DNA of 64,000 nucleotides from a virus, in the IMG/VR virus record IMGVR_UViG_3300020442_000008, positions 64,599-128,598 of that record; one strand, 5' to 3'. Positions 1,365 through 45,569 of the stretch are shown here, piece after piece. The notes beneath the pieces were generated by a model that was not told the DNA's origin, did no database searches, and worked only from the letters and a program-made list of their open reading frames with translations. The position numbers were made by a program, and so were the translations under genes. How positions within the stretch are numbered: the first letter of the stretch is position 1; each line of letters begins with the position of its first letter.

Positions 1365-1667
1365 TTTGGAAGGGCTTATAATCCTTCCTGTGGGTGACTG
1401 AATAAGCCTGTCGTGAGCGGGCTAAAGTACGCAGACTTCCTGTGGTGGGAGTGCAGAGTCCAATCGGATGAGCAAAAGATGTAGACCTTGTCTAGTCTGT
1501 GGTTTGAAGTAGGTACACCATTGAACTGATGTTCACGCCGAAAAAATGGAGGTATTCAGTAGTCCTCCCCCACATCTATTTACATAGGCAAATATGCGGA
1601 GGTTGTGTGTTGCCTCTAGTGACTATCATCGCCTGTTGGGTAACTCAATAAAAGCCTAGCAAACTCT
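1365..1667 (+). ncRNA. candidate structured non-coding RNA, family not recognised
   Basis: GC-richer, no ORF of 60 aa or more, between a promoter and an intrinsic terminator; nested stems including ACTGAATA(1397)/TATTCAGT(1553) and GTGGG(1390)/CCCAC(1569). Confidence 0.65.
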
Positions 1668-3038: not shown

Positions 3039-3118
3039 CCATCATACTGACTATCAAGGACTTATGAAATTTCGCCAAGTCAAAAACTTGCGTAAGTCTC
3101 CGGCAATCAAAGACTTAC
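3039..3118. repeat. paired 27-bp pseudo-palindrome element 1
   Basis: CCATCATACTG-ACTAT-CAAGGACTTAT (3039) and GTAAGTCTCCG-GCAAT-CAAAGACTTAC (3092); 53-bp period. Confidence 0.75.
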
Positions 3119-3184
3119 AACAAAAGTAATTAAAAAGCAAAAAAGGTGTTGACAGGACGACATTCTTTCTCTAGTATAGTATAC

Positions 3185-3553
3185 ATGATGAAAAACGATA
3201 TGCCTATAAACGAATTATTAAACTTCGATGATCTTGTTTTCAAGCCACATCGCCATGCCGACGGAGTTCAAGCTGTGCTTGACTTGGGAAACGATCTTTC
3301 GATCTCTGTCGTTGCAAACAATGACGGAGGGCAAGGGTTATATGGTCAAGTCAGTGATGGTCTGTACGAAGTTGCAGTCTTTTACAAGAATGATATGATT
3401 CCTCTCTCTCCTGCAGATGATGTTGTGGGTTGGCAATCTCCTAACCAAATCTCTTATATGATGATGAAGGCTCAAGTAGAAGGGTTTTATTGGGTTGATG
3501 AGCTTAAGGATGCAAAAAGAGAGTATAGAAGAGAATTCGAGCTTGACAATTAA
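3185..3553 (+). CDS. hypothetical phage protein (start revised to 3185)
   Basis: TTGACA(3149)-17-TAGTAT(3172), then ATG; contains GLYG...GLYEVAV. Confidence 0.75.
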   Translation: MMKNDMPINELLNFDDLVFKPHRHADGVQAVLDLGNDLSISVVANNDGGQGLYGQVSDGLYEVAVFYKNDMIPLSPADDVVGWQSPNQISYMMMKAQVEGFYWVDELKDAKREYRREFELDN

Positions 3554-3577
3554 TTACCATTAGTATAGGATGATATT

Positions 3578-3802
3578 ATGACAGACGCAGAATTAGTAAT
3601 GCAAATCGTTAAAGGAAATCTTGCTTGGCAAGATCCAATGTCTAAGGTTTGCCTCGATCAACATGAGCGACATCCCGAAAAGTTCCCTTTGGGTAGTACC
3701 TTTCAGTCATTCGATGAAGTTTTAGACGACATCATTTTTGACTTGACATCTTTACGAGATGAGCGTAGAATAGAATCATCTTTTCAATCAGCACAACTAT
3801 AA
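3578..3802 (+). CDS. hypothetical protein
   Basis: leaderless promoter TTGACA(3543)/TAGGAT(3566). Confidence 0.7.
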   Translation: MTDAELVMQIVKGNLAWQDPMSKVCLDQHERHPEKFPLGSTFQSFDEVLDDIIFDLTSLRDERRIESSFQSAQL

Positions 3803-3813
3803 CCAAAGAAATT

Positions 3814-4038
3814 ATGTTAACAGATAAAAACCAAATCGCAGAGTTTAGACTCCGCACTCTTCACAAAATGCTAAAGCTTGAAATTCTTGGGATGAAACGC
3901 AGAGGTCAATCGGCTTATGCAATCATAAAGCAAGAAACGGGTCTCACGGGATCAAAGCAAAAAGTTTACGACAAACTAGATGCTTTTCTGAATCCTCAAC
4001 ATGATGTAGAAATGGAAAGGGCAATCTACAATGGGTAA
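3814..4038 (+). CDS. hypothetical protein
   Basis: ORF in cluster. Confidence 0.7.
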   Translation: MLTDKNQIAEFRLRTLHKMLKLEILGMKRRGQSAYAIIKQETGLTGSKQKVYDKLDAFLNPQHDVEMERAIYNG

Positions 4039-4241
4039 GAAGAATAAAGAAAAAGGCATTCCTAGCCAAGAAGCTCATTTGCACTTGCATAAAGTGGCAA
4101 AGAAATCCTCTCACACGGGCAACAAACCTCTTGTTCCACACATTAACAATCCTAATGTTATGGTTACTCAAAAGGTGAGAAAAGCCCAAGAATCGAAAAA
4201 AAACTCTTGACTTTTAACCCATAATTTGAGATACTTATATC

Positions 4242-4511
4242 ATGTTAGATTATATTGAAGCAAACTGCGTTTTACCGCCACTTGAAAACAAACCATCCTA
4301 CAACGAAGAATCGGGCTTATGGGAACTATACTTTGAGGAGCTTTTACCATCATGGTATGTTAGAGGTGAAGACGAACACCCCGACCTTATCACTCTCAAT
4401 TTCGAGACTTGGGATCAAGTCCAAAACACTTTACTACAACTAGAACAAATCAAACATGAAAGGGACGCTTATGAAGCTACTGAGCAAGATCAAGAATCTG
4501 TTCTCTCCTAA
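4242..4511 (+). CDS. acidic hypothetical protein
   Basis: leaderless promoter TTGACT(4207)/GATACT(4230). Confidence 0.7.
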   Translation: MLDYIEANCVLPPLENKPSYNEESGLWELYFEELLPSWYVRGEDEHPDLITLNFETWDQVQNTLLQLEQIKHERDAYEATEQDQESVLS

Positions 4512-4701
4512 GTACCAAGTGGTATATACCACTCAAGACGGACGGACTGAACGCTATACAATCAACAAACCATCATATGAGTATGAGTTTGGCAACAATC
4601 ACGAAGGAAAGAAAGTCGTTGGCTTTCGCTCCTACTGCCACAATCGGCATGGTGTACGCTCTTTTCGTTACGATAGAGTTGTCGCACTAGAAAGGGCATA
4701 A
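4456..4701 (+). CDS. stand-alone WYL-like domain protein
   Basis: YTTQDGRTERYTI...FRSYCHNRHGVRSFRYDRV matches the WYL pattern; start may be 4471. Confidence 0.65.
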   Translation: MKGTLMKLLSKIKNLFSPKYQVVYTTQDGRTERYTINKPSYEYEFGNNHEGKKVVGFRSYCHNRHGVRSFRYDRVVALERA

Positions 4702-4704
4702 TCC

Positions 4705-4863
4705 ATGAATATAATTGCCTTAAAGAAACAGATTCGCCAACTCGGCTACGAGCTAATGCTTGCAGAAGTTAGCGATTCTTATTGCGAAGACTTCGTAGAG
4801 AAAAGGAAGCTCCACGACTCCTTGCTAGAGCAACTCTACAAGGCGGAAAAAAGAGTTTTCTGA
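4705..4863 (+). CDS. hypothetical 52-aa protein
   Basis: ATG 3 nt after the previous stop; ends just before element 2. Confidence 0.5.
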   Translation: MNIIALKKQIRQLGYELMLAEVSDSYCEDFVEKRKLHDSLLEQLYKAEKRVF

Positions 4864-4874
4864 TCTTTACCCTC

Positions 4875-4956
4875 CTAAACCATTATCCCCCAAGCACTTG
4901 GGGGATTTTTGGCATAGGCCGGCCGGCCCGTAAGTCCTTGGTATAGAGTGAGTTAA
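4875..4956. repeat. paired 27-bp pseudo-palindrome element 2
   Basis: CTAAACCATTA-TCCCC-CAAGCACTTGG (4875) and GTAAGTCCTTG-GTATA-GAGTGAGTTAA (4930); 55-bp period; first unit overlaps a terminator-like hairpin ATCCCCCAAG/CTTGGGGGAT-TTTT. Confidence 0.7.
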
Positions 4957-5027
4957 GCAACAAAAAAAATGTGTTTATTAGTCATTTTATGCTTGCAGTT
5001 TGCACCGATTCTGTCATACTTATAGTT

Positions 5028-5261
5028 ATGATAATTAATGAAGAATACCAATCGGATGAAAACCCTAACGCTGAACTCGTTGTCGAGGCAATCATGGATC
5101 AGATCGCAACTATCCTTATTCAACCTATGCACGACAAACTTACCGCTGAAGATCAACTGACCCTTGGTCTTGTGGCAAATGCCCTAAAAGTATTGGGCAA
5201 GAAAGCTCAAGCATATGAAAACTTGGAAAACGGAGAACTTCCCCAAGATTGGAAAAATTAG
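5028..5261 (+). CDS. hypothetical protein (start revised to 5028)
   Basis: TTGCAG(4993)/CATACT(5015) promoter-like site, then ATG. Confidence 0.65.
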   Translation: MIINEEYQSDENPNAELVVEAIMDQIATILIQPMHDKLTAEDQLTLGLVANALKVLGKKAQAYENLENGELPQDWKN

Positions 5262-5331
5262 TGCTTGACTTTTTATATATTTTCACTTATACTTATATCA
5301 TAACAATCGAAAATCCTAAACTTAAAAAATT

Positions 5332-6129
5332 ATGTTAGATACAACTCAAGAAACTCCTCGTCTTAACCTTCGCATTTGCGGTAACAGATCAACAATCGTT
5401 GACATGGATGCCGTTCGTAGAGTACCAACTCCACAAGCAACGAATCGTTGGAAACCTATTGCACACTCAAAAGTTGTCGATACAACTCGAAACACTCTTG
5501 AGGATAAAGGTTTTGAAATTCTCAACGAATGTCACAATGTCACCAAAGGTGGCGAGCATTACTTTGGAATGTTCCAAGTTAATCATGCTGACCTTTCCGA
5601 TAATGGCGGTGAGCGTGGTTGCGTTGTGGGCATGAGAAATTCCCATGACAAACTTTTCGCAGCAGGTCTGTGTGCAGGTGACGCACCATTCATCTGTGAC
5701 AATCTTATTTTTCACAACGAAGTTGTCTTCACTCGCAAACATGTTGGCGATGTTTATGGAGAACTCGTAACAAGGGTGAACAAAATCACCGAGTATCTTA
5801 TTCCTATGTGGACTCGTCAAAATGATCGTGTGCAAGCCTACAAAGACCTTGCGGTCAATGATCGTGAAGCTCAGCATCTCATTTTCGATGTTTACGAAGC
5901 AGGAATTAAGACTAATTTGATTGGCAAGTCTATGCTCGCTCAAGCGTGGGAGCAATGGAAAGATTCTGACCACAAGGTTTTCCAAGACCGCAATCTCAAT
6001 TCATTGTACAATGCTTTCACAGAAGTGAGCAAAGGACGCAATGTTATGCACTTGCCCAAACGCTCTGAAATTTTCCACAACGCTTTTGATCCTGTCGCAG
6101 GGGTTGAAGCAGTCGAACTTGTCGCTTAA
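5332..6129 (+). CDS. DUF932-family phage/plasmid protein
   Basis: GMRNSHDK...FICDNL motif; promoter TTGACT(5265)/TATACT(5288). Confidence 0.75.
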   Translation: MLDTTQETPRLNLRICGNRSTIVDMDAVRRVPTPQATNRWKPIAHSKVVDTTRNTLEDKGFEILNECHNVTKGGEHYFGMFQVNHADLSDNGGERGCVVGMRNSHDKLFAAGLCAGDAPFICDNLIFHNEVVFTRKHVGDVYGELVTRVNKITEYLIPMWTRQNDRVQAYKDLAVNDREAQHLIFDVYEAGIKTNLIGKSMLAQAWEQWKDSDHKVFQDRNLNSLYNAFTEVSKGRNVMHLPKRSEIFHNAFDPVAGVEAVELVA

Positions 6130-6158
6130 TTTTAACACTAAAACAAAGGATATACATT

Positions 6159-6386
6159 ATGAAATGCCGTAATCTCAACGAAGTACTCGATTCACGCAAA
6201 GGACGATTTGTTTCCGTCCTTCTAAAGAATGGTCTGAAGCGTGAGCTTTATTCAGCTAAAGTTCACGACTACAATTCTAAAGTCGTCCGTTTCCGTGACA
6301 CTAATGGAGGCGAGCGTAGAGTTGACCGCTCTATGGTTGTAAGGGCTAAGGTTGCCGAGCGTTATTTCAAACGCTCAAGGAGTTAA
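6159..6386 (+). CDS. small basic hypothetical protein
   Basis: AAGGA SD upstream; followed by a terminator. Confidence 0.7.
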   Translation: MKCRNLNEVLDSRKGRFVSVLLKNGLKRELYSAKVHDYNSKVVRFRDTNGGERRVDRSMVVRAKVAERYFKRSRS

Positions 6387-6401
6387 CCAAAGCTCTCCTT
6401 C

Positions 6402-6433
6402 AAAAAACCCTTGGGAAACCAAGGGTTTTTTTT
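6402..6433 (+). terminator. intrinsic terminator
   Basis: AAAAAACCCTTGG-GAAA-CCAAGGGTTTTTTTT. Confidence 0.85.
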
Positions 6434-6438
6434 GTGCC

Positions 6439-6520
6439 CTAAGTTATTTACTATCAAGGACTTCCAGGCTTGCCGGCCCAGGCAAAACTTGGCGTAAGTC
6501 TTTGATTATCAGGTGTTTGA
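6439..6520. repeat. paired 27-bp pseudo-palindrome element 3
   Basis: CTAAGTTATTT-ACTAT-CAAGGACTTCC (6439) and GTAAGTCTTTG-ATTAT-CAGGTGTTTGA (6494); 55-bp period. Confidence 0.8.
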
Positions 6521-6575
6521 AGCTTAAGAAAAAAAAGTGTTGACAGGTGCCTAGTTATAGTGTTATAGTATAGGT

Positions 6576-6977
6576 ATGATTAGAACAAAGACAGACTCTC
6601 GCTACGACATCGACTATGACCGTAAGGTGTTCGTATATAAAAACCTTCACAAGAATTGCTGGAGCATCCGCCAGGACGGGTTAGTCAAAGCTCATTCAGA
6701 TGGTTCACCAATTTGCTTATATTCAGCAGTCATGAAAGTTAACCAAAAAGGTCGAGAGCGTGTGATTCGAGAAAAGAGTAAAAATGTTCATGCAGGTATT
6801 TTGGGTTACCTTAGATTTCCTATGATGGAAGTATGGCACGGATGGGTTGACATGATCGAGATTACATATAACCCTTACAAGTATCATTCTTTTGTAGATG
6901 TTGAAAACAAGAAGACAAGATACTTCGCAAGCTTCTGTAAACTTTATCAAGATAAAGTTTTAGTTGATCGTTATTAA
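6576..6977 (+). CDS. conserved-looking phage hypothetical protein
   Basis: VYKNLHKNCWSIR...KNVHAG...ITYNPYK motifs; leaderless promoter TTGACA(6540)/TATAGT(6564). Confidence 0.75.
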   Translation: MIRTKTDSRYDIDYDRKVFVYKNLHKNCWSIRQDGLVKAHSDGSPICLYSAVMKVNQKGRERVIREKSKNVHAGILGYLRFPMMEVWHGWVDMIEITYNPYKYHSFVDVENKKTRYFASFCKLYQDKVLVDRY

Positions 6978-7015
6978 GGGTTGACAAGTTAATTTATTTT
7001 TATTAGTATAGTATC

Positions 7016-7756
7016 ATGATTAAAACAACACTTCTCACATCAGGTAATCAAAAAATTCTCAAAGGAGAAAAAATGGGTTACATCACGAAAGGCATCCACC
7101 TTGCCCCTGCCAATCTTGCGGGCTATGAAGTTTGCCAATGGCGTTCCAAAGGATGCACTGCTTCTTGTCTCAACACGGCTGGTCGTGGGCAAATGAACTC
7201 TGTTCAGCAGTCACGCATTGCCAAGACAAAGCTATTCTTCGAGCAACGCAAAGATTTCATGATTAAGCTTTGCAAAGAAATTGCTTCGACCATTAAGTCG
7301 GCAAGCAAGAAAGAGATGAAAGCAGTTTTCCGTCTCAATCTCACAAGTGACATTAAATGGGAGGATGTTTACATGAAAGATCCAAACTATAACATTTTTG
7401 AATACTTTTGTGCAGAACAATTCTACGACTACACAAAGTCATTTAAGAGAATGTGTGCTTATCTTGGCAAGCCATTCACCAAAGATGAAGCAAAGTTTCC
7501 GTCCAATTATCATCTAACTTTTTCTCGTTCAGAACACAACGATAAGAAGTGTGAAATGGTTCTTGCTATGGGTGGCAATGTTGCCGTGGTGTTTCGCAAT
7601 CAATTACCAAAGACTTGGAAAGGTTACGAAGTTGTTAATGGTGATGAAACTGATTTGCGTTTCCTTGACAAAAAAGGTGTTGTCGTTGGGCTTATCGAAA
7701 AAGGTATGGCAAAGAAAGATGAGACAGGATTCGTGCAAGAAGGTATTGACTCTTAA
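7016..7756 (+). CDS. Gp88-like phage protein with Cys cluster
   Basis: C-x6-C-x3-C (VCQWRSKGCTASCLNTAGRG), RLNLTSDI, FYDYTK, YHLTFSRSE; leaderless promoter TTGACA(6981)/TAGTAT(7004). Confidence 0.65.
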   Translation: MIKTTLLTSGNQKILKGEKMGYITKGIHLAPANLAGYEVCQWRSKGCTASCLNTAGRGQMNSVQQSRIAKTKLFFEQRKDFMIKLCKEIASTIKSASKKEMKAVFRLNLTSDIKWEDVYMKDPNYNIFEYFCAEQFYDYTKSFKRMCAYLGKPFTKDEAKFPSNYHLTFSRSEHNDKKCEMVLAMGGNVAVVFRNQLPKTWKGYEVVNGDETDLRFLDKKGVVVGLIEKGMAKKDETGFVQEGIDS

Positions 7757-7779
7757 TTGCAATTTGATATAATTATAGT

Positions 7780-7989
7780 ATGAGAAAAACAAAATTCATA
7801 TTGACTTTATCAAACGACAAAATTCCAATCATTGCAGAAGTTTGTGCTTTAAGAGTTTTAGAGAATGATGAAAAAGTATTAGGCAAAGCTTGCGTGGAAG
7901 CAAACATTAAGTCAAAAAACTTCATAGACATAACAAGAAAAGCCAACTATAAAGAAGGAAAGTTATATGCTCATGCGGATTATGTATAA
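7780..7989 (+). CDS. hypothetical protein
   Basis: leaderless promoter TTGACT(7746)/TATAAT(7768). Confidence 0.65.
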   Translation: MRKTKFILTLSNDKIPIIAEVCALRVLENDEKVLGKACVEANIKSKNFIDITRKANYKEGKLYAHADYV

Positions 7990-8067
7990 GCGAAAAACCG
8001 CCACGCAAATAGAAGAATGACAAATAGATAAATAGCAAATAGTATATATTTACCAATAAAAAATTCC

Positions 8068-8149
8068 ATAACCTTTTCATTATCAATGACTTATGGGATT
8101 TTTTTGCTAGGCCAGGGTTTGCGTAAGTCTCCGACAATCAAGGACTTAC
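8068..8149. repeat. paired 27-bp pseudo-palindrome element 4 (at convergence point)
   Basis: ATAACCTTTTC-ATTAT-CAATGACTTAT (8068) and GTAAGTCTCCG-ACAAT-CAAGGACTTAC (8123); 55-bp period. Confidence 0.8.
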
Positions 8150-8150
8150 A

Positions 8151-8318
8151 TCACGAGAAAAAAGGATGCTTGACCACTGAAGACATCGGGACACAAACCC
8201 GCCTCTGTGAGCGGTAGACCCTCGCAAGGACGAAGGTCTCGGCTCCGTCTTTGTAAGTGCCCTCGACATGGAGGATTCGCTTTTTATAGTCTACCACGAC
8301 ATCATTTTTTTTAATCAT
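8151..8318 (-). CDS. hypothetical 55-aa protein
   Basis: MIKKNDVVVDYKKRILHVEG...; stop lies 1 nt from element 4. Confidence 0.55.
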   Translation of the reverse strand: MIKKNDVVVDYKKRILHVEGTYKDGAETFVLARVYRSQRRVCVPMSSVVKHPFFS

Positions 8319-8332
8319 AATTTTATCCTATT

Positions 8333-8413
8333 CTATCGGCTCAACTCGCCTTTGATCAATTCTTTTATTAATGCGAACAATCCCACAACACCTAGCAATG
8401 TGACCAATTCCAT
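8333..8413 (-). CDS. small single-pass membrane peptide (26 aa)
   Basis: MELVTLLGVVGLFALIKELIKGELSR; starts 3 nt after the upstream stop. Confidence 0.45.
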   Translation of the reverse strand: MELVTLLGVVGLFALIKELIKGELSR

Positions 8414-8416
8414 TAT

Positions 8417-8638
8417 TTATTTGTCTGAAGGAACAAAGTCAAGCTCACGATTGTCAAGGATGTATCCTATGACTTTATTGACCTTTTCGATTGTATCGTC
8501 GAGGGTCTTTTTGGAATGTTCTGTGGCTTTCATTTCTTCAAGCACGGAACGCAAGAACTTGAGATTTCCGTTTGCGGAAGCAAGCTTCATTGCGGTATTG
8601 TCGAGGAGTTTTTCGTCTTTGAGTGTTTCGATAATCAT
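8417..8638 (-). CDS. hypothetical protein, weakly similar to 11320-11538
   Basis: LASANGNLKFL vs LSKAEGNLNFL; leaderless TTGACT promoter upstream. Confidence 0.7.
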   Translation of the reverse strand: MIIETLKDEKLLDNTAMKLASANGNLKFLRSVLEEMKATEHSKKTLDDTIEKVNKVIGYILDNRELDFVPSDK

Positions 8639-8682
8639 AAGTCTATTCTAAGGATTTAAGGTTAAAAGTCAAGCTTTTTTTT

Positions 8683-8868
8683 TCACTCCCACTCGGAGTG
8701 ATGACCGAAGTCGATGTCCTCGACCTCTTGGAAGTCAAGGAGGGAAATCCTGTCTTGCAGGTCTCCGATTTCGTTGCGGTACGCAACGAGGTCAGCGGAG
8801 GTGAGGACGGAATCCGCGATGATTTCGCGGAGGAGAGAAATTTTGTTGAGCATTTCGGATTTTGTCAT
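8683..8868 (-). CDS. hypothetical protein
   Basis: ORF in the minus-strand early arm. Confidence 0.6.
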   Translation of the reverse strand: MTKSEMLNKISLLREIIADSVLTSADLVAYRNEIGDLQDRISLLDFQEVEDIDFGHHSEWE

Positions 8869-9100
8869 AATTTTTTGTGTTAGGTTTTCTTTATTTTATA
8901 TTTACAATGTATCAGAGTTTTGCGGAAAAGTCAAGAACTTTTTTTACTTTTTTTCAATTTTGGAATTACGAATTTGCAGAGGATTTTTTCTCTTTCTGTG
9001 AGTTGGGCTTTTTCAATCTTAATCATACCTATAATGTAGCACAAAAACCCCGAAAAGTCAAGAAAAATCTTTAACTATTTTTTTGCACAATTCTCCTAGC

Positions 9101-9182
9101 GTAAGTTGTTCTTTACCAAAGACTTCCGGCATAGCCGGCAGGGGCGACCGGCGCCCTAAGTCTTTGATGGTGTGTGACTTAG
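9101..9182. repeat. paired 27-bp pseudo-palindrome element 5
   Basis: GTAAGTTGTTC-TTTAC-CAAAGACTTCC (9101) and CTAAGTCTTTG-ATGGT-GTGTGACTTAG (9156); 55-bp period. Confidence 0.85.
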
Positions 9183-9487
9183 AACACGAGAGATTCAAGA
9201 TTCTGATTTTGAACGGCAAACCAATCGGATGGGTTAATGATGTGACCGTTTAGTACAGGCTCAAAGTTGACCTGATGAACTCCGGCATTGACTATTCCGT
9301 TCACTCGCTCACGAGTGGTTGGAGTGTTCCAGCCAGCCAGAGACCATATCACAAACCCGCTTGCATCACGCTTGATTATAGCGTTGCCATGCAACCAAAC
9401 GGTGTTGCCGTCAGTGCGAGTGTTGCCAACTGTCAAAGGTTGGCGAGATTCAAAAGCTTGTTTTATTTGTTGTGTTACTTTTCTCAT
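9179..9487 (-). CDS. phage hypothetical protein
   Basis: 102-aa ORF (LHGNAI...AGWNTPTTRERVNG); stop lies inside element 5. Confidence 0.75.
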   Translation of the reverse strand: MRKVTQQIKQAFESRQPLTVGNTRTDGNTVWLHGNAIIKRDASGFVIWSLAGWNTPTTRERVNGIVNAGVHQVNFEPVLNGHIINPSDWFAVQNQNLESLVF

Positions 9488-9496
9488 TGTTATATA

Positions 9497-9682
9497 TTAA
9501 GATTTTTTTTCGGGTTTTGCAAGTAAAAAGTTCAAGAAAGTTTCTTGAGCCTTTTGGTTGTCCAGGAGTTCGTCAAGTTCAATTTGTGCATTTATTACCA
9601 TCTGCTGGCTTTGAATGTGTCCTGCTTCTGCGATAGGGTTGAAAACCCTGATGAGTTCTTTGAGTTCTTTGATTCTATCCAT
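9497..9682 (-). CDS. hypothetical protein
   Basis: ORF in the minus arm. Confidence 0.6.
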   Translation of the reverse strand: MDRIKELKELIRVFNPIAEAGHIQSQQMVINAQIELDELLDNQKAQETFLNFLLAKPEKKS

Positions 9683-9873
9683 GGCTTGAGAGAATTGGGG
9701 CTTGGGTTTTGACTTGTAACTGCTTTGCTTTTTTCATGGCTTTTGCGTGAGTCTTTGCGTTGTCTACGATTTTCCCAAAAAGTCGGATATCGAACCAATT
9801 TGAGAAGTTTGGGTTTTTGTCAACATTTATCATAAGCTTTTATACTATATCTTAAGGTTTAAAAAGTCAAGCT

Positions 9874-10146
9874 TTATCTCCAACTTTTTAGAGAAAAATT
9901 TGTCTGATGTGCCGAGACGGGCAAACCTTGCGTTGGCAAGTCTTTTGCGAAGTCATCAAAAAAGGCAACCGCTTCCGATAGCTCGTCAGCGTGGATTTGC
10001 TCCTCAAGCTTTTTCAACTCGTCCTGTGCATGGCTGAGATGCAACGCCCGAATGGAACGCAAGGATTCCTTGCGAGAGCGGTTGAGTTTGTCTTGCCAAA
10101 AGGCAATTTCCTTTTGGAGCTTTTCTATCTTTTCAATTTTATTCAT
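9874..10146 (-). CDS. hypothetical coiled-coil protein (start revised to 10146)
   Basis: TTGACT promoter at ~10176-10181 upstream. Confidence 0.65.
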   Translation of the reverse strand: MNKIEKIEKLQKEIAFWQDKLNRSRKESLRSIRALHLSHAQDELKKLEEQIHADELSEAVAFFDDFAKDLPTQGLPVSAHQTNFSLKSWR

Positions 10147-10177
10147 GCCTACAATATATCTCAAAAAGGTTGGGAAG

Positions 10178-10369
10178 TCAAGCTTTTTTTACATTATTTT
10201 TCATCGCAATCTTGTTTTGCAAATCCCATTCGTCGAGCCAAGCTTGGTTTTTTGCCAAAGCATCCTTGGCAATTTCAACCACGACAGGGTCGCTATCGTG
10301 GGCAATGGTCTCCCGAAGGAATACCATATCGGCTTTGACTTTAGAGATGAGTCTTATTGAATTAAACAT
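10178..10369 (-). CDS. hypothetical protein
   Basis: leaderless promoter directly downstream of element 6. Confidence 0.65.
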   Translation of the reverse strand: MFNSIRLISKVKADMVFLRETIAHDSDPVVVEIAKDALAKNQAWLDEWDLQNKIAMKNNVKKA

Positions 10370-10443
10370 ACCTATAAGGTATCAGAAAAACCGACATTTG
10401 TAAAGCCTAAAATTAAACTATTTTTTTGCACGATTCTGCTGTC

Positions 10444-10525
10444 GTAAGTCATTGTTAGTTAGAGACTTCCGGCGCAGCCGGCCTGGCCGGCCAGGCCCGC
10501 AAGTCCTTGGCTAACAAAGGTTTAG
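10444..10525. repeat. paired 27-bp pseudo-palindrome element 6
   Basis: GTAAGTCATTG-TTAGT-TAGAGACTTCC (10444) and GCAAGTCCTTG-GCTAA-CAAAGGTTTAG (10499); 55-bp period. Confidence 0.85.
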
Positions 10526-10704
10526 GTCGTTTTTTCGAGGCTTTCGACCCATCTTCCGACTAGCTCTATATCGTGAAAAATGTGGTCAATCGGCTTATCT
10601 TCGCATTCGTCGTAATGCTTTGCCTCGTCGAAGTAGTAAGTGCAAACGATTTTTTGAATGGAATTGATAACAGGTTCAGGTATGTCTTGCATTTTCATTT
10701 TCAT
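10522..10704 (-). CDS. hypothetical protein
   Basis: ORF whose stop lies inside element 6. Confidence 0.65.
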   Translation of the reverse strand: MKMKMQDIPEPVINSIQKIVCTYYFDEAKHYDECEDKPIDHIFHDIELVGRWVESLEKTT

Positions 10705-10706
10705 TT

Positions 10707-10904
10707 TTAGTTTAACTCGTTAAAGTAGTTTTCTTCAATGATTTCTGTACCGATAAACTCACGGCATCGAGATAGGTCTTGCTCTAAGTAGTACCGAACG
10801 GCTTTGGCTACAATTTGATTATCTTCCTTGTAGGGAAGTTCGTCTTTTACTCTCGCCACTATGGCGTCAATCCACTTTGGCACGATGTCTTTTTCAATTT
10901 TCAT
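10707..10904 (-). CDS. hypothetical protein
   Basis: TTGCAA/-10-like promoter immediately upstream. Confidence 0.65.
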   Translation of the reverse strand: MKIEKDIVPKWIDAIVARVKDELPYKEDNQIVAKAVRYYLEQDLSRCREFIGTEIIEENYFNELN

Positions 10905-10973
10905 GAGTATGATTTTAGTAATTTTTGAGCCGATTGCAAGATTTTTTTTCGTTTTAGTTAAGTTTTTTTTGGT

Positions 10974-11074
10974 TATCTGCGGGGAGCCAAGTCCCGCCGT
11001 TTACGGCTCTTAGTTTGGGATTTTCATTTTCATATCTGCGGGGAGCCAAGTCCCGCCGTTTACGGCTCTTAGTT
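10974..11074. repeat. two exact copies of a 42-bp GC-rich unit, 59-bp period
   Basis: TATCTGCGGGGAGCCAAGTCCCGCCGTTTACGGCTCTTAGTT at 10974 and 11033. Confidence 0.9.
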
Positions 11075-11098
11075 GGGAATTTTCTTAATCATACCTAT

Positions 11099-11127
11099 AA
11101 CATAGCACAGAAACTCAGAAAAGTCAA
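11099..11127 (-). promoter_or_regulatory. sigma70-type leaderless promoter
   Basis: TTGACT-17 bp-TATGTT, ATG at 11092; near-identical copy at ~9018-9083. Confidence 0.75.
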
Positions 11128-11161
11128 GAAAAATCTTTAACTATTTTTTCAGATTTGTGTC

Positions 11162-11243
11162 GTAACTCTTTGAACTGGAGCGACTTGCGACAGATTTTCG
11201 GGGGGCGACCGGCGCCCTAAGTCTTTGATTACCAAGGCTTTTC
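11162..11243. repeat. paired 27-bp pseudo-palindrome element 7
   Basis: GTAACTCTTTG-AACTG-GAGCGACTTGC (11162) and CTAAGTCTTTG-ATTAC-CAAGGCTTTTC (11217); 55-bp period. Confidence 0.85.
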
Positions 11244-11315
11244 GTCTTCTTTCATATCTTGCCACATGAGATAGAAAACTACAAGCCAAGGAGAGAATAG
11301 GATAATTTCGATCAT
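11229..11315 (-). CDS. small single-pass membrane peptide (28 aa)
   Basis: MIEIILFSPWLVVFYLMWQDMKEDEKPW; stop lies inside element 7. Confidence 0.5.
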   Translation of the reverse strand: MIEIILFSPWLVVFYLMWQDMKEDEKPW

Positions 11316-11319
11316 AATG

Positions 11320-11538
11320 TTATTTTTTGCGTTGTTCGTGCAGTATGGTCTGAAGCTTTTTTCGGGCTTCTTGGACTGCGTGGAGAGCGTCGAGGATCGC
11401 GATGCCTTGCGTGATGCTCAAGGTTTGGTCTCCTTCGGTGTTGGTTGACCCAGCAAGAAAGTTGAGATTGCCTTCTGCTTTAGAGAGAGCAAGTCCGAGA
11501 TCCAACTCGGGAAAATCCATTTTGCTTGATTCGTTCAT
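11320..11538 (-). CDS. hypothetical protein
   Basis: ORF; weak paralogy to 8417-8638. Confidence 0.65.
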   Translation of the reverse strand: MNESSKMDFPELDLGLALSKAEGNLNFLAGSTNTEGDQTLSITQGIAILDALHAVQEARKKLQTILHEQRKK

Positions 11539-11698
11539 GCTACTGATTTCGTTTTGATTGTTTGGTGTTCGCTTTTTAAAGCTTTGGTGATCTTGCTCAT
11601 GGCAAGGGCGTTTAAACTAATTTGTTTTAAGAATGTTTCAATCTTTATCATATTACTAATCTATAAAAGTTTTGGGCAAAAGTCAAGTTTTTTTTAAA

Positions 11699-11974
11699 TT
11701 ATTTTTCCCATATTTGGTTGATGTAAAAAACGGCTTGATCTCCTTCTTTTGGAAACATTCCCCTTTGAAGTTGCACTTTTGTTTGCAACTTGCGAACCAT
11801 AGCAAAAAACTTGCGTCTAGCTTCAGGCTTGTCTTCAGCTTCAACGGAGAGAATGTTGTTTGTCATGTGCGTATCAACAAAGGAATTTGTGTTTGTGTTC
11901 CATAAAGGAAGCTTTTCCTTGCTATCAATGGAAGAGACATGAATGTTTGCAGTGAATGTTTTATTTTTAATCAT
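11699..11974 (-). CDS. hypothetical protein
   Basis: leaderless TTGACT promoter upstream. Confidence 0.7.
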   Translation of the reverse strand: MIKNKTFTANIHVSSIDSKEKLPLWNTNTNSFVDTHMTNNILSVEAEDKPEARRKFFAMVRKLQTKVQLQRGMFPKEGDQAVFYINQIWEK

Positions 11975-12199
11975 GTATATAATTTAAAGGATTTCTTTGT
12001 AAAAGTCAAACTTTTTTTTAATTATTTTACAGCTTGTTTGATCATTTCAAAAGTCCAAACGTGACCTCCTGGGCATTCCCAAAGGTCGAAAGCCTCGGAC
12101 ATCGGGCTTGCTTGGATACGCTGAAGACCATTTTCTTCAATGAATTTTTGTATTTCTTTAGTTAACATATTTTCTATTATAAGGATTTAAGGTTTAAAG

Positions 12200-12424
12200 T
12201 CAAGCGTTTCTTTCAACGGATCTCCAACCATAACGAGCGACTTCGTCATTATAGCGAGCTTCGGGAAGCCTTGATTTTAGGCTTTTGATATTGGCGAGAA
12301 TCATCTCGCGAGTGTGACCTGTGGCGGGCACGAAGCCTTTACCACTTTCGTAGTGATGTTTTTCGAGGCTAGACTCGAGCATTTGAATGTCGAACTTTAT
12401 TGATTCTGTTTCTGTCATTTTCAT
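12200..12424 (-). CDS. hypothetical protein
   Basis: TTGACT promoter upstream; TGA stop overlaps the next -35 box. Confidence 0.65.
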   Translation of the reverse strand: MKMTETESIKFDIQMLESSLEKHHYESGKGFVPATGHTREMILANIKSLKSRLPEARYNDEVARYGWRSVERNA

Positions 12425-12467
12425 ATTTACAATCTACTATATTTTTACTAAAAAGTCAAGCTTTATT

Positions 12468-12641
12468 TTACTTTTTTTTACTTATTCTTGCACCTGTGGT
12501 GATGGTGTTTGGAAGTTCTTTTTTAAGCCTTTCAGCTATTTGCATAGCTTGGGCGTGTGTCCTTGCGTTGTCTACTAGCACATCATTAACTAGCACATTA
12601 AACCATTCTGAGAAGTTAGCATTTCGTATTATCTTAATCAT
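12468..12641 (-). CDS. hypothetical 57-aa protein
   Basis: MIKIIRNANFSEWFNV...; leaderless promoter downstream of element 8. Confidence 0.55.
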   Translation of the reverse strand: MIKIIRNANFSEWFNVLVNDVLVDNARTHAQAMQIAERLKKELPNTITTGARISKKK

Positions 12642-12711
12642 ACTAACAACATAGCACTATATGGGGCAAAAGTCAAGTATTATTTTACTTTTTTTTTATT
12701 TTTTTTCTATT

Positions 12712-12793
12712 ATAACTTACTGATTATTAAAGACTTACAGCATAGCCGGCAGGGGCGGCCGGCGCCCTAAGTCATTGGCTATTAAGGGTTTAG
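12712..12793. repeat. paired 27-bp pseudo-palindrome element 8
   Basis: ATAACTTACTG-ATTAT-TAAAGACTTAC (12712) and CTAAGTCATTG-GCTAT-TAAGGGTTTAG (12767); 55-bp period; spacer nearly identical to element 5. Confidence 0.85.
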
Positions 12794-13014
12794 AACTCGT
12801 CCATCAAGAACTCGTCAAGTGCATAGGTGTCTAGGTCGGGGTCTTGGTAGCTTGCACCATCAGGTGTGTTGTATGTGCCCGATTCTACTAGATGATTGGC
12901 TAGATCTTTGTATTGCACAAAACGCCTAGCGAGTTTATATAAACTCTCGTCGTTGCCTAACCATAGGGCAACATTCCATGTTGCCCAATTTGCCCAGCCG
13001 TTGTAATCGCTCAT
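12790..13014 (-). CDS. phage hypothetical protein with YNGWxNWxTWNVALW motif (start revised)
   Basis: motif recurrent in phage early regions; stop lies inside element 8. Confidence 0.7.
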   Translation of the reverse strand: MSDYNGWANWATWNVALWLGNDESLYKLARRFVQYKDLANHLVESGTYNTPDGASYQDPDLDTYALDEFLMDEF

Positions 13015-13201
13015 GGTCTTATGCGTTAGGGTTGACAGCGAAAAGCCCATAACGACGCGAGCCGTCATTGTGCTTCATGCGAGAGCGTAGGAGACGCTCA
13101 GCGTCACGCCTCCGCAACGCTATGGATTCGACTTGCCAAACGGCGCCCGCTTGGTTGAGGATAGACTTAAGGATGTACATGTTAACCTTTCTGTTGAGGG
13201 T

Positions 13202-18793: not shown

Positions 18794-21700
18794 ATGGGAG
18801 GTAGTGGTTATCAAATTCACGGCTTACCCGGCGGTTATGCTCCCGCAATTTCCGAAAAAGGGGTTGATATATATGGTGGACCTAGAGGTTCTTTAGCGGG
18901 CACTCTGCCGTCTTGGATTGCATGGTGGACCACTGGCTTCAGGTATCAGCCTGGGCATATTGTATATATGCCTGGCGTGTATGAGAGAGATTATAATGTG
19001 GCTGGGCAAGTTATAAACCAAGGATCTTTTTCTCCTGGACAGGCATACGACGATGGCAGAGGAAACCTGTCTTATAAAAGAGACGAGCTTGCTTGGGATC
19101 AAGATATCCAGGTACAAAGCCTTCAAGAAGGAGGAGATCTTACAGGAGGAAGCATGTCTAGGGGCGCCGGTTCAATCAAGTCTGAAGGGGCTAAGCAGTA
19201 CTTTGAATATGGATCTCATACATTATGGGTTAAATTATTTGGAGGTCAGGATAATGCGGCGACAAACGACTCTTCATTAACAAAGGATGCAGATTTTTTT
19301 GATGTAAACAAGCGGCGAAAAAACGGGTGGTATTGTTTTTACGAGCTAATGAGGGAAACAGATCCTATTGTTGGAGGAAACCTTGAAATCGCTTTTCCTG
19401 GAAATTATGATATACAAAGTAATCAGTGGGACAGTAATAAAAAAAGATATACAGTTAAAGTAAATAACCAAGAAACTTTAAAGGTTGTCTATGGTTCCTG
19501 GGGTGAAGATCTTTTTAGACAAATTCCTTGCGAACCAAATAGCGCTACAGAAATCGCAGTTTTTCACGATGAGACCATATTGAACATGTGTGATACTTTT
19601 GCTCTTCTAGCTTCAACTCTTGCAGCTAGCAAGCATTTAGTAAATTTTGTTGTATGTAAAAGTGTTCTTAGGTCACCTGGATCTTTAGGAGAAGATGAAT
19701 CTGCAAGCCCTGTTGAGGTTGCAATTCTTCCGACCGATAAAATTACTATCGGAGGAAATGTTCTCAGAAGCCCTCAAAAGGTTGCCATTAGGGATACGGT
19801 TGATAATAGTTTTGATAAGGATAGTAGTTTTTTTGAAAACGACAGCGGTTCAGATGAAGAAATAACGATGCTCTCTGCAGGTTACCCTGGAATTATGAAT
19901 CCTGAGGCATTATTTCATGCCGCTCGAAACGCAGACGATTTTGATGCAAAAATAAGCGATATTGCCAAGGGTAATGTTGTAGGAAGTGACGTTATTGTGG
20001 GCGAGCAAATTCTAGCAGATTCTGAGCAATTATATTTAGATAAAATAAAATTTGGTAAAATGCCTGCTTACGATCCTAGATTTGGTGAAGCTGCAACTTC
20101 GTTAAATAGTTTTATAAGTTCTGTTTATAATTTTTCCCTACCCATGTCAACTAGTGCGAGCATTGATTTCTGGGAAGCAAATATATTATACAAAGTTGGC
20201 AAGGTTGTAAGGCTGTCTCCCAACGCAACCGAATATAATGCGGCAGAGGCGGAGAAAAACTTTAAAGATGTTGTCTGGGTTTGTAAAAAAGAGCATACAT
20301 CTGGCGTTTTTGCTGGAGAAAAGTGTCCGCCTTTGGGAAGTGGTGGTTCTCGCTCTGTTCCCGAGGTTTTTGAAAACACCTATTGGAGAAGTTATGGAGT
20401 CTTGGCGAATCAACCAAATTCATCGCTTCTTCAGTTGAATGATTTATATAGAGATTCTGAAATATTTGTCCCCACAATTAATGTAACAAAAAGTGCTTCT
20501 GAAAATCTAAACCTTGGAGAAGCTGATTTTTCGCGAAGCTTACTGGGTTCTTCTAGGAGAATTAGAATGTCTGAAATGTCTGGAGGTTGCAGATTGTATG
20601 CGAGTTTAACCATTTCACCTGCCAAAAAATTTGACGTAAAATATTATCGAAAAAGAAATTCATGGGGAAGAAGAAGAACCGTATCTTTTAGATTTCCACC
20701 TCAGAGGTCCGATGCAGCTCAAGCAGACTTATGGTTGTATGCCAATAACTTCAGGAAGGATCATGCAGGATCTATAAATTTTGCAGTTACATTTGTTGAG
20801 CATACTGGTTTTGTTTGGGCTCAGGCAAAAAGGAGAAGAGGTTCATTTTTTGGAGTTTTACTGGGAGTGGCTTTTGCGGTTGTTGGAATCCTTAATCCCG
20901 CTTTATTTCTTACTGCAGGTATGCAATGCGCTGCGTGGGGTTTTGGTGGCGGGCTTGCTTTAGGGGCTTTGGGTGGAGCGGTGGGATTAGGTATTGGTAC
21001 TGCTCTAGGGGCAAGCGCTGAAGCGGTTTACGCAAACCTGGGAAAAGGGGTTGGTAGAAAAAAAGCTTTTACTAGGCAATCTTTTTCTAAAATCGTGAGT
21101 AAGGTTGCTGCTGATGCACCATCTTTGGACTATGTTCTTCAACGTGGTCAAAGCCCAGACAATGGAGTTGTTATAGGAAAAAATAGTAGTGATGTTGCGC
21201 AAGATATGTATGATAGCAGTAGTGATACTAAAAACGAAAATGATATAATTAGATTTAATTTTGGTAATCTTTATCCATATCTATATGAAAGCAAGCATAA
21301 TAATACAATTCATGTTACTGGAGAATATCAGTTTATGATCCAAGATTTGAATTCAGCGCAAACAATAAAGGTTGATTTTAAGTATGAAGAAATTAGCCGC
21401 AGAAGATCTAGGAATTTTAATGATTCCTTTGGTCAAACCTTTTCAGGTTACCCGCGAGGAACACCAGAAAGCCCGCATGCTAGTGCAAGCTCAACCCTTT
21501 ACAATGCATACGTAAGCGCAGCAAATGATATTATTAGCGGAAGCACAAGTTCTGGACAAAATCTTAAGTTAATTGCAACAAGAAATTATTTTAATTATCT
21601 ATTAATTGGCCAAGAAAATGTAAGAGACGCTAATGATCCCCTAAAAGCTTTAACGATGTGGTCTGTCGATTTGAGTAATGCTCAATTTAATGCTTTGATA

Positions 21701-45068: not shown

Positions 45069-45569
45069 ATGACTGCGCTATCTTCAATTGCAGAATCTAT
45101 ATTTGACGAAGAGTTCTACTGGAAGGAAGAACTAAAAGATACTCGCTACTCTTCTGGCGAAGAGGAGAGGGAGAAGGAGATAGTGATTATAACTGACTGG
45201 CTTGAGGCTCACTTGGGCGAGCTTAACTTAATGATTAATACTGATTTTGCTGCAGAAAACGGAGTTGTCCCTGACTTAAAAAATGAGGAGTCTGCAATTC
45301 TTAGAGAAATGTATATGATGAATTACTATCGCAAGCAAGGGAGAAATCTCTTGAGGACAATCGATGGATCTGCTGCAAGTTTAAACTTTAAAACTATTCG
45401 AGAAGGAGATTCCGTTATTACTGCGGCATCTATAGGAGAGAAACAAAGCGTTGCTAGAAGTTATCGAATGTTAATGGAGGACGCTAGGGAGAAAATAGAG
45501 AAGTTAGTTCATTCTTACAATATGTATCAGTCTAAGCCTAATCAGGTGTCAGGTAATGATGCAAATTAA
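45069..45569 (+). CDS. putative head-tail adaptor
   Basis: size and position after the capsid gene; TIREGDSVI. Confidence 0.5.
   Translation: MTALSSIAESIFDEEFYWKEELKDTRYSSGEEEREKEIVIITDWLEAHLGELNLMINTDFAAENGVVPDLKNEESAILREMYMMNYYRKQGRNLLRTIDGSAASLNFKTIREGDSVITAASIGEKQSVARSYRMLMEDAREKIEKLVHSYNMYQSKPNQVSGNDAN

Follow-up and report, generated by a model that had tools for sequence, protein, structure and literature searches.

Paired palindromic elements ahead of early gene modules in an uncultured marine phage family: possible docking sites for an IHF/HU-type protein

What purpose is served by a long paired palindrome that is repeated eight times among the small early genes of an uncultured marine phage? 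It might be a site for the exchange of gene cassettes, a strand that folds on itself or a docking site for a protein on duplex DNA. The eight copies are found in IMG/VR record IMGVR_UViG_3300020442_000008, a record of 128,598 bp that was judged to be 95% complete and has a genome G+C content of ~37%. The stretch analyzed here, called the window, comprises 64,000 nucleotides (bases 64,599–128,598 of the record), and all positions given below are those of the window. An original prediction, made from the letters of the window, regarded the elements either as an undescribed cassette-shuffling system or as a phased nucleoprotein array. The elements are real and confined to the early gene arrays, and each of them is very probably a duplex-DNA protein-binding element upstream of promoters. 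A fuller statement is held more tentatively, at somewhat less than an even chance: that they are paired docking sites for a protein of the integration host factor (IHF) or HU type, which head early modules and are used secondarily as recombination junctions.

Anatomy, promoters and spread of the elements

All eight elements were found at their predicted starts. Each consists of two 27-bp pseudo-palindromes, half-sites A and B, on either side of a spacer that measures 28 nt in seven copies; only the copy at 3039 has a shorter one, of 26 nt. The length of the whole element is 80–82 bp. The spacings from start to start are 1836, 1564, 1629, 1033, 1343, 718 and 1550 bp, in agreement with the predicted recurrence every ~0.7–1.9 kb. 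The inner arms are complementary, as had been claimed, and are also the best-conserved part of the element. The elements and the features next to them lie as follows:

3039..3118 (+): element 1; half-site A at 3039–3065, spacer of 26 nt, half-site B at 3092–3118
4875..4956 (+): element 2; half-site A overlaps a terminator-like hairpin (CCCCCAAG/CTTGGGGG), then a T-run
6404..6436 (+): intrinsic-terminator-like hairpin (AAAACCCTTGG/CCAAGGGTTTT) and T-run, read from the sequence, just upstream of element 3
6439..6520 (+): element 3; located by weight matrix and covariance model
8068..8149 (+): element 4; faces the convergence zone of two gene arrays
9101..9182 (−): element 5; the outer arm holds the stop codon of the upstream gene 9179–9487
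10444..10525 (−): element 6; its spacer centre, 10484, is one side of a natural joint
10485..11202 (−): module of 718 bp from the spacer centre of element 6 to that of element 7; missing in contigs X4, X5 and X9
11162..11243 (−): element 7; the joint has its second side at 11203, the spacer centre
12712..12793 (−): element 8; the outer arm holds the stop codon of the upstream gene 12790–13068

Three of the leftward elements hold, in their outer arm, the stop codon of the gene before them.

The half-sites proposed earlier are real but degenerate, and their claimed consensus, applied strictly with up to three mismatches, finds only two of them (vs. none in 100 shuffles). With a symmetric weight matrix, the 16 half-sites score 14.6–31.7 bits, and the best match elsewhere in the 128,598-bp genome reaches 11.3 bits; when each element is left out of its own scoring, 15 of the 16 half-sites are still above 11.3 bits. 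A sequence-only covariance model (R1), trained on 14 elements taken from the window and the relative L002, returned exactly the eight places and nothing further when run on the genome. The motif is not scattered genome-wide, and the earlier remark that no copy was seen beyond 12.8 kb can be extended to the whole genome.

The position of the elements relative to the genes is also regular. Rightward genes extend to ~8.6 kb and leftward genes occupy the stretch between ~18.2 and 8.4 kb, which gives two converging arrays. Elements 1–4 lie in the rightward array and elements 5–8 in the leftward one, and their orientation is always that of the local genes. Along the direction of transcription, the order is half-site A, spacer, half-site B, ~15–20 nt, an A-rich tract and a −35 hexamer, followed by 16–18 nt, a −10 hexamer, 6–7 nt and an ATG. 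Such a −35/−10 pair with a leaderless ATG stands 19–39 nt after half-site B in seven of the eight elements (for element 2, coordinates and distance were counted by hand):

3149..3187 (+): promoter-like TTGACA-17-TAGTAT after element 1, its −35 located 30 nt past half-site B; ATG at 3185, open reading frame (ORF) of 122 aa
4993..5030 (+): weaker promoter-like TTGCAG-16-CATACT after element 2, 36 nt past half-site B; 7 nt on, ATG at 5028 of conserved ORF family 41
6540..6578 (+): promoter-like TTGACA-18-TATAGT, TG-extended, after element 3, 19 nt past half-site B; 6 nt on, ATG at 6576
9024..9061 (−): promoter-like TTGACT-17-TACATT after element 5, 39 nt past half-site B; 6 nt on, ATG at 9026, ORF of 31 aa
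10367..10404 (−): promoter-like TTTACA-17-TACCTT after element 6, 39 nt past half-site B; 6 nt on, ATG at 10369, 63 aa
11090..11127 (−): promoter-like TTGACT-17-TATGTT after element 7, 34 nt past half-site B; ATG at 11092, stop after 7 codons
12639..12676 (−): promoter-like TTGACT-17-TATGTT after element 8, 35 nt past half-site B; 6 nt on, ATG at 12641, 57 aa, family 39

Downstream of element 4 (8068), there is only a −35-like TTGACC with no clear −10 or ATG, and the stretch that follows is not unusual in structure (z = −0.01). The ORF behind element 7 (11092–11069, − strand) reads MIKKIPN; its counterpart behind element 5 has 31 codons and starts alike (MIKIEK...), and the shorter frame looks like a decayed module head. 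Promoters of this type are also found away from the elements. Between 1700 and 13700, in both arrays, nearly each small early gene has its own TTGAC(A/T)-16/18-TAnnnT, and the predicted mRNAs are leaderless because the ATG lies only 4–8 nt after the −10. The elements mark only a subset of the early promoters, namely the heads of modules.

The phage belongs to a family that is common in marine viromes and has no cultured member. Its genome codes for a large terminase (TerL), a DnaE-type polymerase, a DnaB-type helicase and a PhoH-like protein. No close cultured relative was found: a megablast search with the genome was empty, and TerL is at most ~27% identical to its counterparts in cultured phages, the best cultured matches (~25% identical) being those of Clostridioides and Bacillus phages. 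The family is not T4-like. The phage is present in marine metagenomes, and TerL relatives with 71–94% identity occur in at least 599 IMG/VR stretches.

Many of these relatives share the elements. In the close relative L001/L002 (81% identity in a neighbouring protein), six full elements are present together with a single half element, mostly at orthologous places. Clustered covariance-model matches (E ≤ 0.1) were obtained in 14 of the 20 related records searched and are confined in each relative to one stretch of ~10–14 kb; the complete relative G009 gave no element match in the same search. An exact palindromic half-site pattern was found in 30 further IMG/VR stretches, where the model also finds arrays. 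A genome holds 7–13 copies. The 55-bp period that had been proposed is fixed inside this genome but not in the family: all spacers of a genome have one length, but genomes differ from one another over a range of 22–28 nt. Even in relatives whose TerL is only ~71% identical, the arms keep the same consensus. The elements are conserved across a widespread uncultured marine phage family. For the comparisons below, 69 non-redundant full-length elements from 11 loci were aligned, after the duplicates L088 (= L085) and L092 (= L086) and partial matches had been dropped.

Folded strand, duplex site and candidate binder

The original prediction held that a single strand of the element could fold into a two-stem structure. 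This proposal failed, as three pairing schemes are without covariation and no attC-like folded structure was recovered. Within the 69 elements, local hairpins in each half-site have 68.9% standard pairs vs. a shuffled mean of 68.9% (255 of 500 shuffles were as high), and the pairing of inner with inner and outer with outer arms yields 68.8% vs. 69.1% after shuffling. Double changes in the arms are not in excess (69 cells vs. 75 expected). The spacers have a fold energy of −6.09 vs. −5.99 kcal/mol for shuffled sequences (p = 0.47), the alignment-wide consensus fold computed by RNAalifold reaches only −2.8 kcal/mol, and Rfam has no family on the elements. Arm combinations that are not complementary recur across genomes, for example GTAACTCGTTGA with CAACAACTTAC. 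The palindromic look results from the match of each arm to one consensus and not from selection for pairing. Arms without compensatory pairing are the signature of a symmetric protein on duplex DNA. Together with the set position upstream of promoters, they favour the nucleoprotein-array reading that was part of the original prediction.

The arms also suggest which protein might be involved. The consensus of the 138 half-sites is gTAAgTCnTTGAtnaTCAAcGACTTAc, and its most conserved positions are AA (99/94%), T10 (95%), C17 A18 A19 (89/100/86%) and T24 T25 A26 (99/100/87%). They coincide with the specified positions in a pair of inverted WATCAANNNNTTR IHF cores that share a central W, and the family consensus arm agrees with the core at 9/9 specified positions. 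A match at 8/9 positions or better is present, among the 69 elements, in 22 left and 46 right arms of half-site A and in 34 left and 37 right arms of half-site B; the background for such a match is 0.155% of random genome 13-mers. In element 1, the right arms of both half-sites match at 9/9 positions. The full core is found 27 times in the genome (both strands), and six of these occurrences are within the 654 bp of the elements vs. 0.14 expected. According to PMC1874591, an IHF site covers ~34 bp, WATCAA begins near its centre with TTR four bases beyond, and prolines of IHF intercalate at two AA steps 9 bp apart. In the half-sites, the steps of TTG (positions 9–11) and CAA (positions 17–19) are exactly 9 bp apart; TTG is present in 73 of the 138, CAA in 111 and both in 53. 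Two variants of the arm, ..GACTT.. and ..GGTTT.., are distinguished by the NNNN positions of the core alone. Searches with Pfam detected no Bac_DNA_binding gene (PF00216, HU/IHF) in this genome or in four relatives and no DNA-binding domain in 20 early-region proteins. It is an even bet that the binder is an IHF/HU-type protein of the host.

In the favoured explanation, each element would be a duplex-DNA platform for an IHF/HU-type architectural bending protein, most likely supplied by the host. Each 27-bp half-site would be a dyad-symmetric IHF-type site made of two inverted cores, and the two sites, 49–55 bp apart from centre to centre, would be placed on either side of a stiff G+C-rich spacer. 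The centre of the promoter-proximal site would lie ~68–88 bp upstream of the predicted transcription start. We infer that IHF or a relative binds and that two sharp bends may fold the upstream DNA and thereby stimulate a strong early promoter. Alternatively, the bends might insulate a module from the read-through and supercoiling of the previous one. What the data show directly is the anatomy and position of the elements, the missing covariation, the agreement with the consensus, the occurrence throughout the family and the bias in reshuffling.

A related motif was found in an unrelated phage. Stenotrophomonas phage DLP6 is a T4-like soil phage with 56% G+C, and the arm sequence appears in the terminator table of the paper that describes it (PMC5349666). 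In the DLP6 genome (KU682439.2), the 11-mer CAACGACTTAG occurs, with up to one mismatch, 25 times on the forward strand vs. once for the backwards control. It is arranged mostly as two direct copies 25 bp apart with AAA before each, and a G+C hairpin and an early-type promoter (TTTACT-17-TATAAT) follow the repeat pair. There are ~15 such composite early-promoter units, for example at 45312–45450 and 74441–74560; a unit comprises two (A)AATCAACGACTTA(C/G) direct repeats, a G+C hairpin that overlaps the TTTACT −35, and a GTATAAT −10. No description of these repeats was found in the available portion of the DLP6 paper (PMC5349666). At E ≤ 0.001, DLP6 and this phage share only a dCMP deaminase, PhoH and a few others, and tblastn finds no DNA-binding protein common to both. 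A conserved host-type factor would be the simplest explanation for the presence of the 11-mer in both phages. The 11-mer in DLP6 suggests a wider, so far unnoticed motif, and DLP6 can be cultured in the laboratory.

Several points weigh against the IHF-type reading. The likeness to the IHF consensus was recognised only post hoc. The NNNN positions are moderately conserved (G 60%, A 78%, C 66%) and are identical in DLP6, a hint that the protein involved is more selective than IHF. Canonical IHF sites can carry a 5' A-tract, which is missing here, the 5' half being an inverted core, and the cores of DLP6, 25 bp apart, leave no room for two ~34-bp IHF footprints to be occupied together. Promoters that lack an element look no weaker, and activation is not obviously needed. 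No single host is indicated: TerL relatives sit in metagenome-assembled genomes (MAGs) labelled as six different phyla, probably through mis-binning. Shine–Dalgarno motifs are not enriched genome-wide (11 of 78 genes vs. 10% at random positions), and their absence is unusual for Proteobacteria, where canonical IHF is best known. Finally, the spacer itself has dyad symmetry. Its mirror complementarity is 0.469 vs. 0.30 for shuffled spacers, and amounts to 0.509 between different elements of one genome and 0.37 across genomes. The IHF model leaves this symmetry unexplained; it suggests a second, genome-specific partner or homogenisation between copies. A candidate for such a partner is the family 39 protein, which is small and basic (52–57 aa, pI ~10) and present in 10 of the 11 loci. 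In the window, it has paralogues at 9675–9833 and 12468–12641 (− strand), the latter being the first gene behind element 8.

Gene order around the elements

Cassette shuffling, the other proposal of the original prediction, stood only in part. Gene-order maps of the 11 loci show heavy reshuffling. Same-strand neighbours are still adjacent elsewhere in 20% of cases when an element lies between them (52 pairs) vs. 44.5% when it does not (191 pairs; Mann–Whitney p = 1e-4, with comparisons that are not independent). In 57 element–genome comparisons, both flanks were found at one element in 6, at two different elements in 3, and one flank only in 48. Breakpoints between relatives are enriched at the elements: 22 of 150 ends of high-scoring segment pairs (HSPs) from six locus pairs lie within 30 bp of an element (15% vs. 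8% of random positions; binomial p = 0.006, the ends not being independent), but the other 128 lie elsewhere. Between the window and L002, several homology blocks stop at or within elements: the block 4206–8148 ends at the edge of element 8068 and the block 9153–9836 begins inside element 9101. The DNA between these facing elements (8149–9153) is unrelated in the two phages, and L002 retains only one half of the element that is orthologous to 9101.

A clean joint, 10484 to 11203, is present in contigs X4, X5 and X9, which come from three marine metagenome studies. It unites spacer nucleotide 14 of element 10444 with nucleotide 15 of element 11162, and it is not a k-mer assembly artefact because only 2 nt are shared. 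The hybrid spacer at the joint resembles the spacers of elements 9101 and 12712, and the 718-bp module may therefore be an insertion into an older element. Other natural joints lie at promoters (11113 to 11674/11678) or at gene ends. The ends of homology segments have no peak at the spacer centre, and linkage between adjacent segments of the 69 elements is tightest, rather than weakest, for the two spacer halves (r = 0.35). The original prediction saw no site-specific recombinase in the window, and this was confirmed genome-wide: Pfam finds neither PF00589 nor PF00239 in this genome or in five relatives, three of which are at least 90% complete, and does not detect the Y1 transposase PF01797 in this genome. 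What remains of the shuffling proposal is the loss of adjacency at elements, the flanks that seldom stay together and the centre joint; no recombinase of a known family was detected, there is no general crossover hotspot, and the modules have their own promoters. In the favoured explanation, the elements would serve as preferred, not exclusive, junctions in the exchange or loss of modules between related phages because they are the only long conserved repeats among fast-evolving small genes. Together, these data fit recombination with conserved repeats as exchange points, as proposed for the promoter-early stem-loops (PeSLs) of T4-type phages in PMC2839356. A dedicated site-specific system does not fit well.

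Four rival explanations have to be weighed against the docking-site reading. The elements might act as folded RNA or single-stranded DNA, be it as terminators, RNase III sites, mRNA-stabilising hairpins, attC-like folds or cruciforms. Some copies do fold well, with a z-score down to −5.5, and a T-run follows half-site A of elements 4875 and 8068; the RNA-library contigs of X19 are short pieces, and the one that enters elements 1 and 2 points only weakly in the same direction, since it may represent DNA and contigs cannot show RNA ends. Nevertheless, the covariation counts have already largely refuted this explanation, and with spacers that fold no better than shuffles, conserved non-complementary arm combinations, no Rfam family and a canonical terminator of its own already preceding element 3, it is extremely improbable. 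The elements could instead be operators of a phage-encoded regulator, for example a repressor that shuts off early modules, and their IHF likeness would then be coincidental. Comparable repeated operators are the stoperators of Cluster A mycobacteriophages and the CIRs (conserved inverted repeats) of phiC31. Duplex-DNA sites without covariation, their restriction to early arrays, the partly conserved NNNN positions and the genome-specific symmetry of the spacer, as expected from a co-evolving dimeric phage protein, would all agree with such operators, and the SPBRE elements offer a precedent in which one master regulator acts on repeated promoter-region elements of a large phage (PMC10516654, in its available part). 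A regulator of this kind is still rather unlikely. The early-region proteins show no DNA-binding domain by Pfam, the genome has no YopR/MrpR homologue, the arm consensus is constant in the family and recurs in DLP6 without a shared candidate protein, and the sites do not cover the core promoter but precede it.

If the elements were crossover sites of a dedicated cassette exchange system, an unrecognised or host recombinase would exchange strands at the spacer centre. The joint from centre to centre in contigs of three studies would be explained in this way, as would the ~28-nt block, starting near the spacer centre, that is identical in elements 9101 and 11162 despite the lack of any relation between their other halves, the likeness of element 11162 and L089:13608 from the spacer centre onward, the half element of L002 at the 9101 orthologue, the adjacency lost about twice as often at elements, and flanks that are seldom together across genomes. 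However, the three samples may all have inherited the centre joint as one allele, the spacer halves are tightly linked with no breakpoint peak at the centre, most HSP ends and the other joints lie away from the elements, and the recombinase and transposase families named above are missing; such a system is accordingly held to be improbable. A more specific form of it is just as doubtful: the elements would be synapsis sites, in each of which a pair of bent IHF-type sites holds a G+C-rich, genome-specific core and strands are exchanged at the dyad centre. If this were true, a recombinase of no known family or a host enzyme would perform the exchange, promoter-bearing modules would be swapped between co-infecting phages, and the 718-bp module between 10444 and 11162 would be a cassette caught in both states. 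Lastly, selfish palindromic repeats of the kind of miniature inverted-repeat transposable elements (MITEs) or of repetitive extragenic palindromes and bacterial interspersed mosaic elements (REPs/BIMEs) might spread together with the promoter and have no function for the phage. Spacers do look homogenised within a genome, as in three identical copies of the relative L086, and the layout of two palindromes plus a linker recalls BIMEs as far as they are described in the available part of PMC3333891. The absence of a Y1 transposase, hairpin complementarity that is not maintained, orthologous positions kept between the window and L002, constrained orientation and promoter distance, and an arm consensus held across a deep phage family make a selfish repeat very unlikely.

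Some neighbouring features deserve mention. A full-length manA RNA motif (Rfam RF01745) is located at 1368–1578 (+), directly upstream of the first modules, with 84.4 bits vs. a gathering score of 55.2 (E = 1.2e-20). The ORF at 6576–6977 (+), 133 aa long, matches the Pfam family Phage_L5_gp82 (E = 2.9e-27), and that at 7016–7756 (+) matches the GP88 family (E = 2.7e-46); both families were first described in mycobacteriophage L5. The ORF at 9179–9487 has a match to Kyano_Gp96 of T4-like cyanophages. In relatives, tRNA genes stand 5–13 nt from an element at L084 4875–4949 (Ile), L087 16476–16550 (Ile) and L086 13514–13590 (Met). The three element copies of L086 at 4791–4990, 6429–6630 and 7592–7790 have a near-identical downstream flank of ~100 bp, which suggests recent duplication of a unit made of element and flank. 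An ORF of 3847 aa at 18794–30337 (+) gave only DUF4214, below the cut-off, and has no PHROG or PDB-sequence match. In the lineage of the window and L002, this ORF and its neighbours (~14–32 kb) lie between the early array and the PhoH gene; in nine other relatives, the PhoH gene is directly beside the early array. The idea that the ORF is an N4-like virion RNA polymerase that uses hairpin promoters was rejected: it has none of these matches, and relatives without the ORF carry elements too.

Comparison with known systems

Literature text searches found no description of these elements; the only relevant hits were the terminator table of the DLP6 paper (PMC5349666) and the PeSL papers. The papers compared below were available in part, and the likenesses and differences apply to those parts.

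The integron attC site was cited in the original prediction as a folded two-stem element between cassettes. attC sites and the phage elements are both imperfect inverted repeats between small gene modules. attC sites are recognised as folded single strands, and their structure is conserved rather than their sequence. Here, in contrast, the sequence is conserved and not the structure, no integron-type integrase was found in the genome, and the modules have their own promoters.

A further comparison is offered by the SPBRE/MrpR system of the Bacillus phage SPbeta, which is a distant TerL and DnaE relative of this phage. SPbeta, a phage of ~130 kb, has about ten copies of SPBRE in promoter regions (PMC10516654). 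SPBRE is, however, a short motif of ~15 bp close to the core promoter, and its binder is a repressor with a recombinase fold (PMC10516654). The system was set aside as a direct model because the architecture differs and because a search of the genome with YopR of SPBc2 gave no match at E ≤ 10; the absence of YopR and of PF00589 rests on sequence searches, which could miss a divergent fold.

BIME-1 elements of enterobacteria have two inverted palindromic units and a linker, contain an IHF site and are intergenic, and roles as terminators and topological insulators have been proposed for them (PMC3333891). In BIME-1, the IHF site lies in the linker, and REPs fold as hairpins with a GTAG head (PMC3333891). 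In the phage elements, the IHF-like cores themselves make up the palindromes and are joined by a G+C-rich linker, no RAYT (REP-associated tyrosine transposase) was found, and the setting is a phage and not a chromosome.

IHF sites upstream of early promoters are familiar from phages, as at lambda pL and Mu Pe. The elements resemble them in the WATCAANNNNTTR core, in ApA steps 9 bp apart and in a position ~70–90 bp upstream of a sigma-70 promoter. They differ in that the sites are predicted ones, are dyad-symmetric with two cores per site, and are paired at a genome-fixed spacing in 7–13 copies. If the IHF-type reading is true, the host must supply such a protein, and paired dyad-symmetric bending sites in this number per genome would be an unusual organisation of early transcription.

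Close parallels in layout come from the PeSLs of T4-type phages (PMC2839356, PMC4122927). Like PeSLs, the elements are repeated composite motifs in regions of small ORFans, with an AT-rich tract upstream of a sigma-70-like early promoter and ORFans downstream; the stop codon of the upstream gene can lie inside the motif. Copies of PeSLs are end points of indels and replacements between relatives; at the phage elements, breakpoints are enriched but most of them lie elsewhere. Unlike PeSLs, they consist of an 80–82 bp four-arm pseudo-palindrome upstream of the AT tract, have no G/C stem-loop at the promoter and no hairpin covariation, head leaderless genes and occur in a phage family that is not T4-like. 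The stem-loop terminator of a PeSL has no general counterpart here: foldability is not in excess, and a hairpin with a T-run is present in some copies only. In the T4-like DLP6, a PeSL-style hairpin-promoter is combined with the 11-mer upstream of it.

The elements are classed here with IHF-assisted promoters and PeSL-like regulatory cassettes and not as an integron-like system. They provide a conserved, easily modelled cis element that marks the heads of early transcription modules in this family. The reshuffling bias and the centre joint add a second, independent example to the idea, developed for the PeSLs of T4, that regulatory repeats serve as points of exchange.

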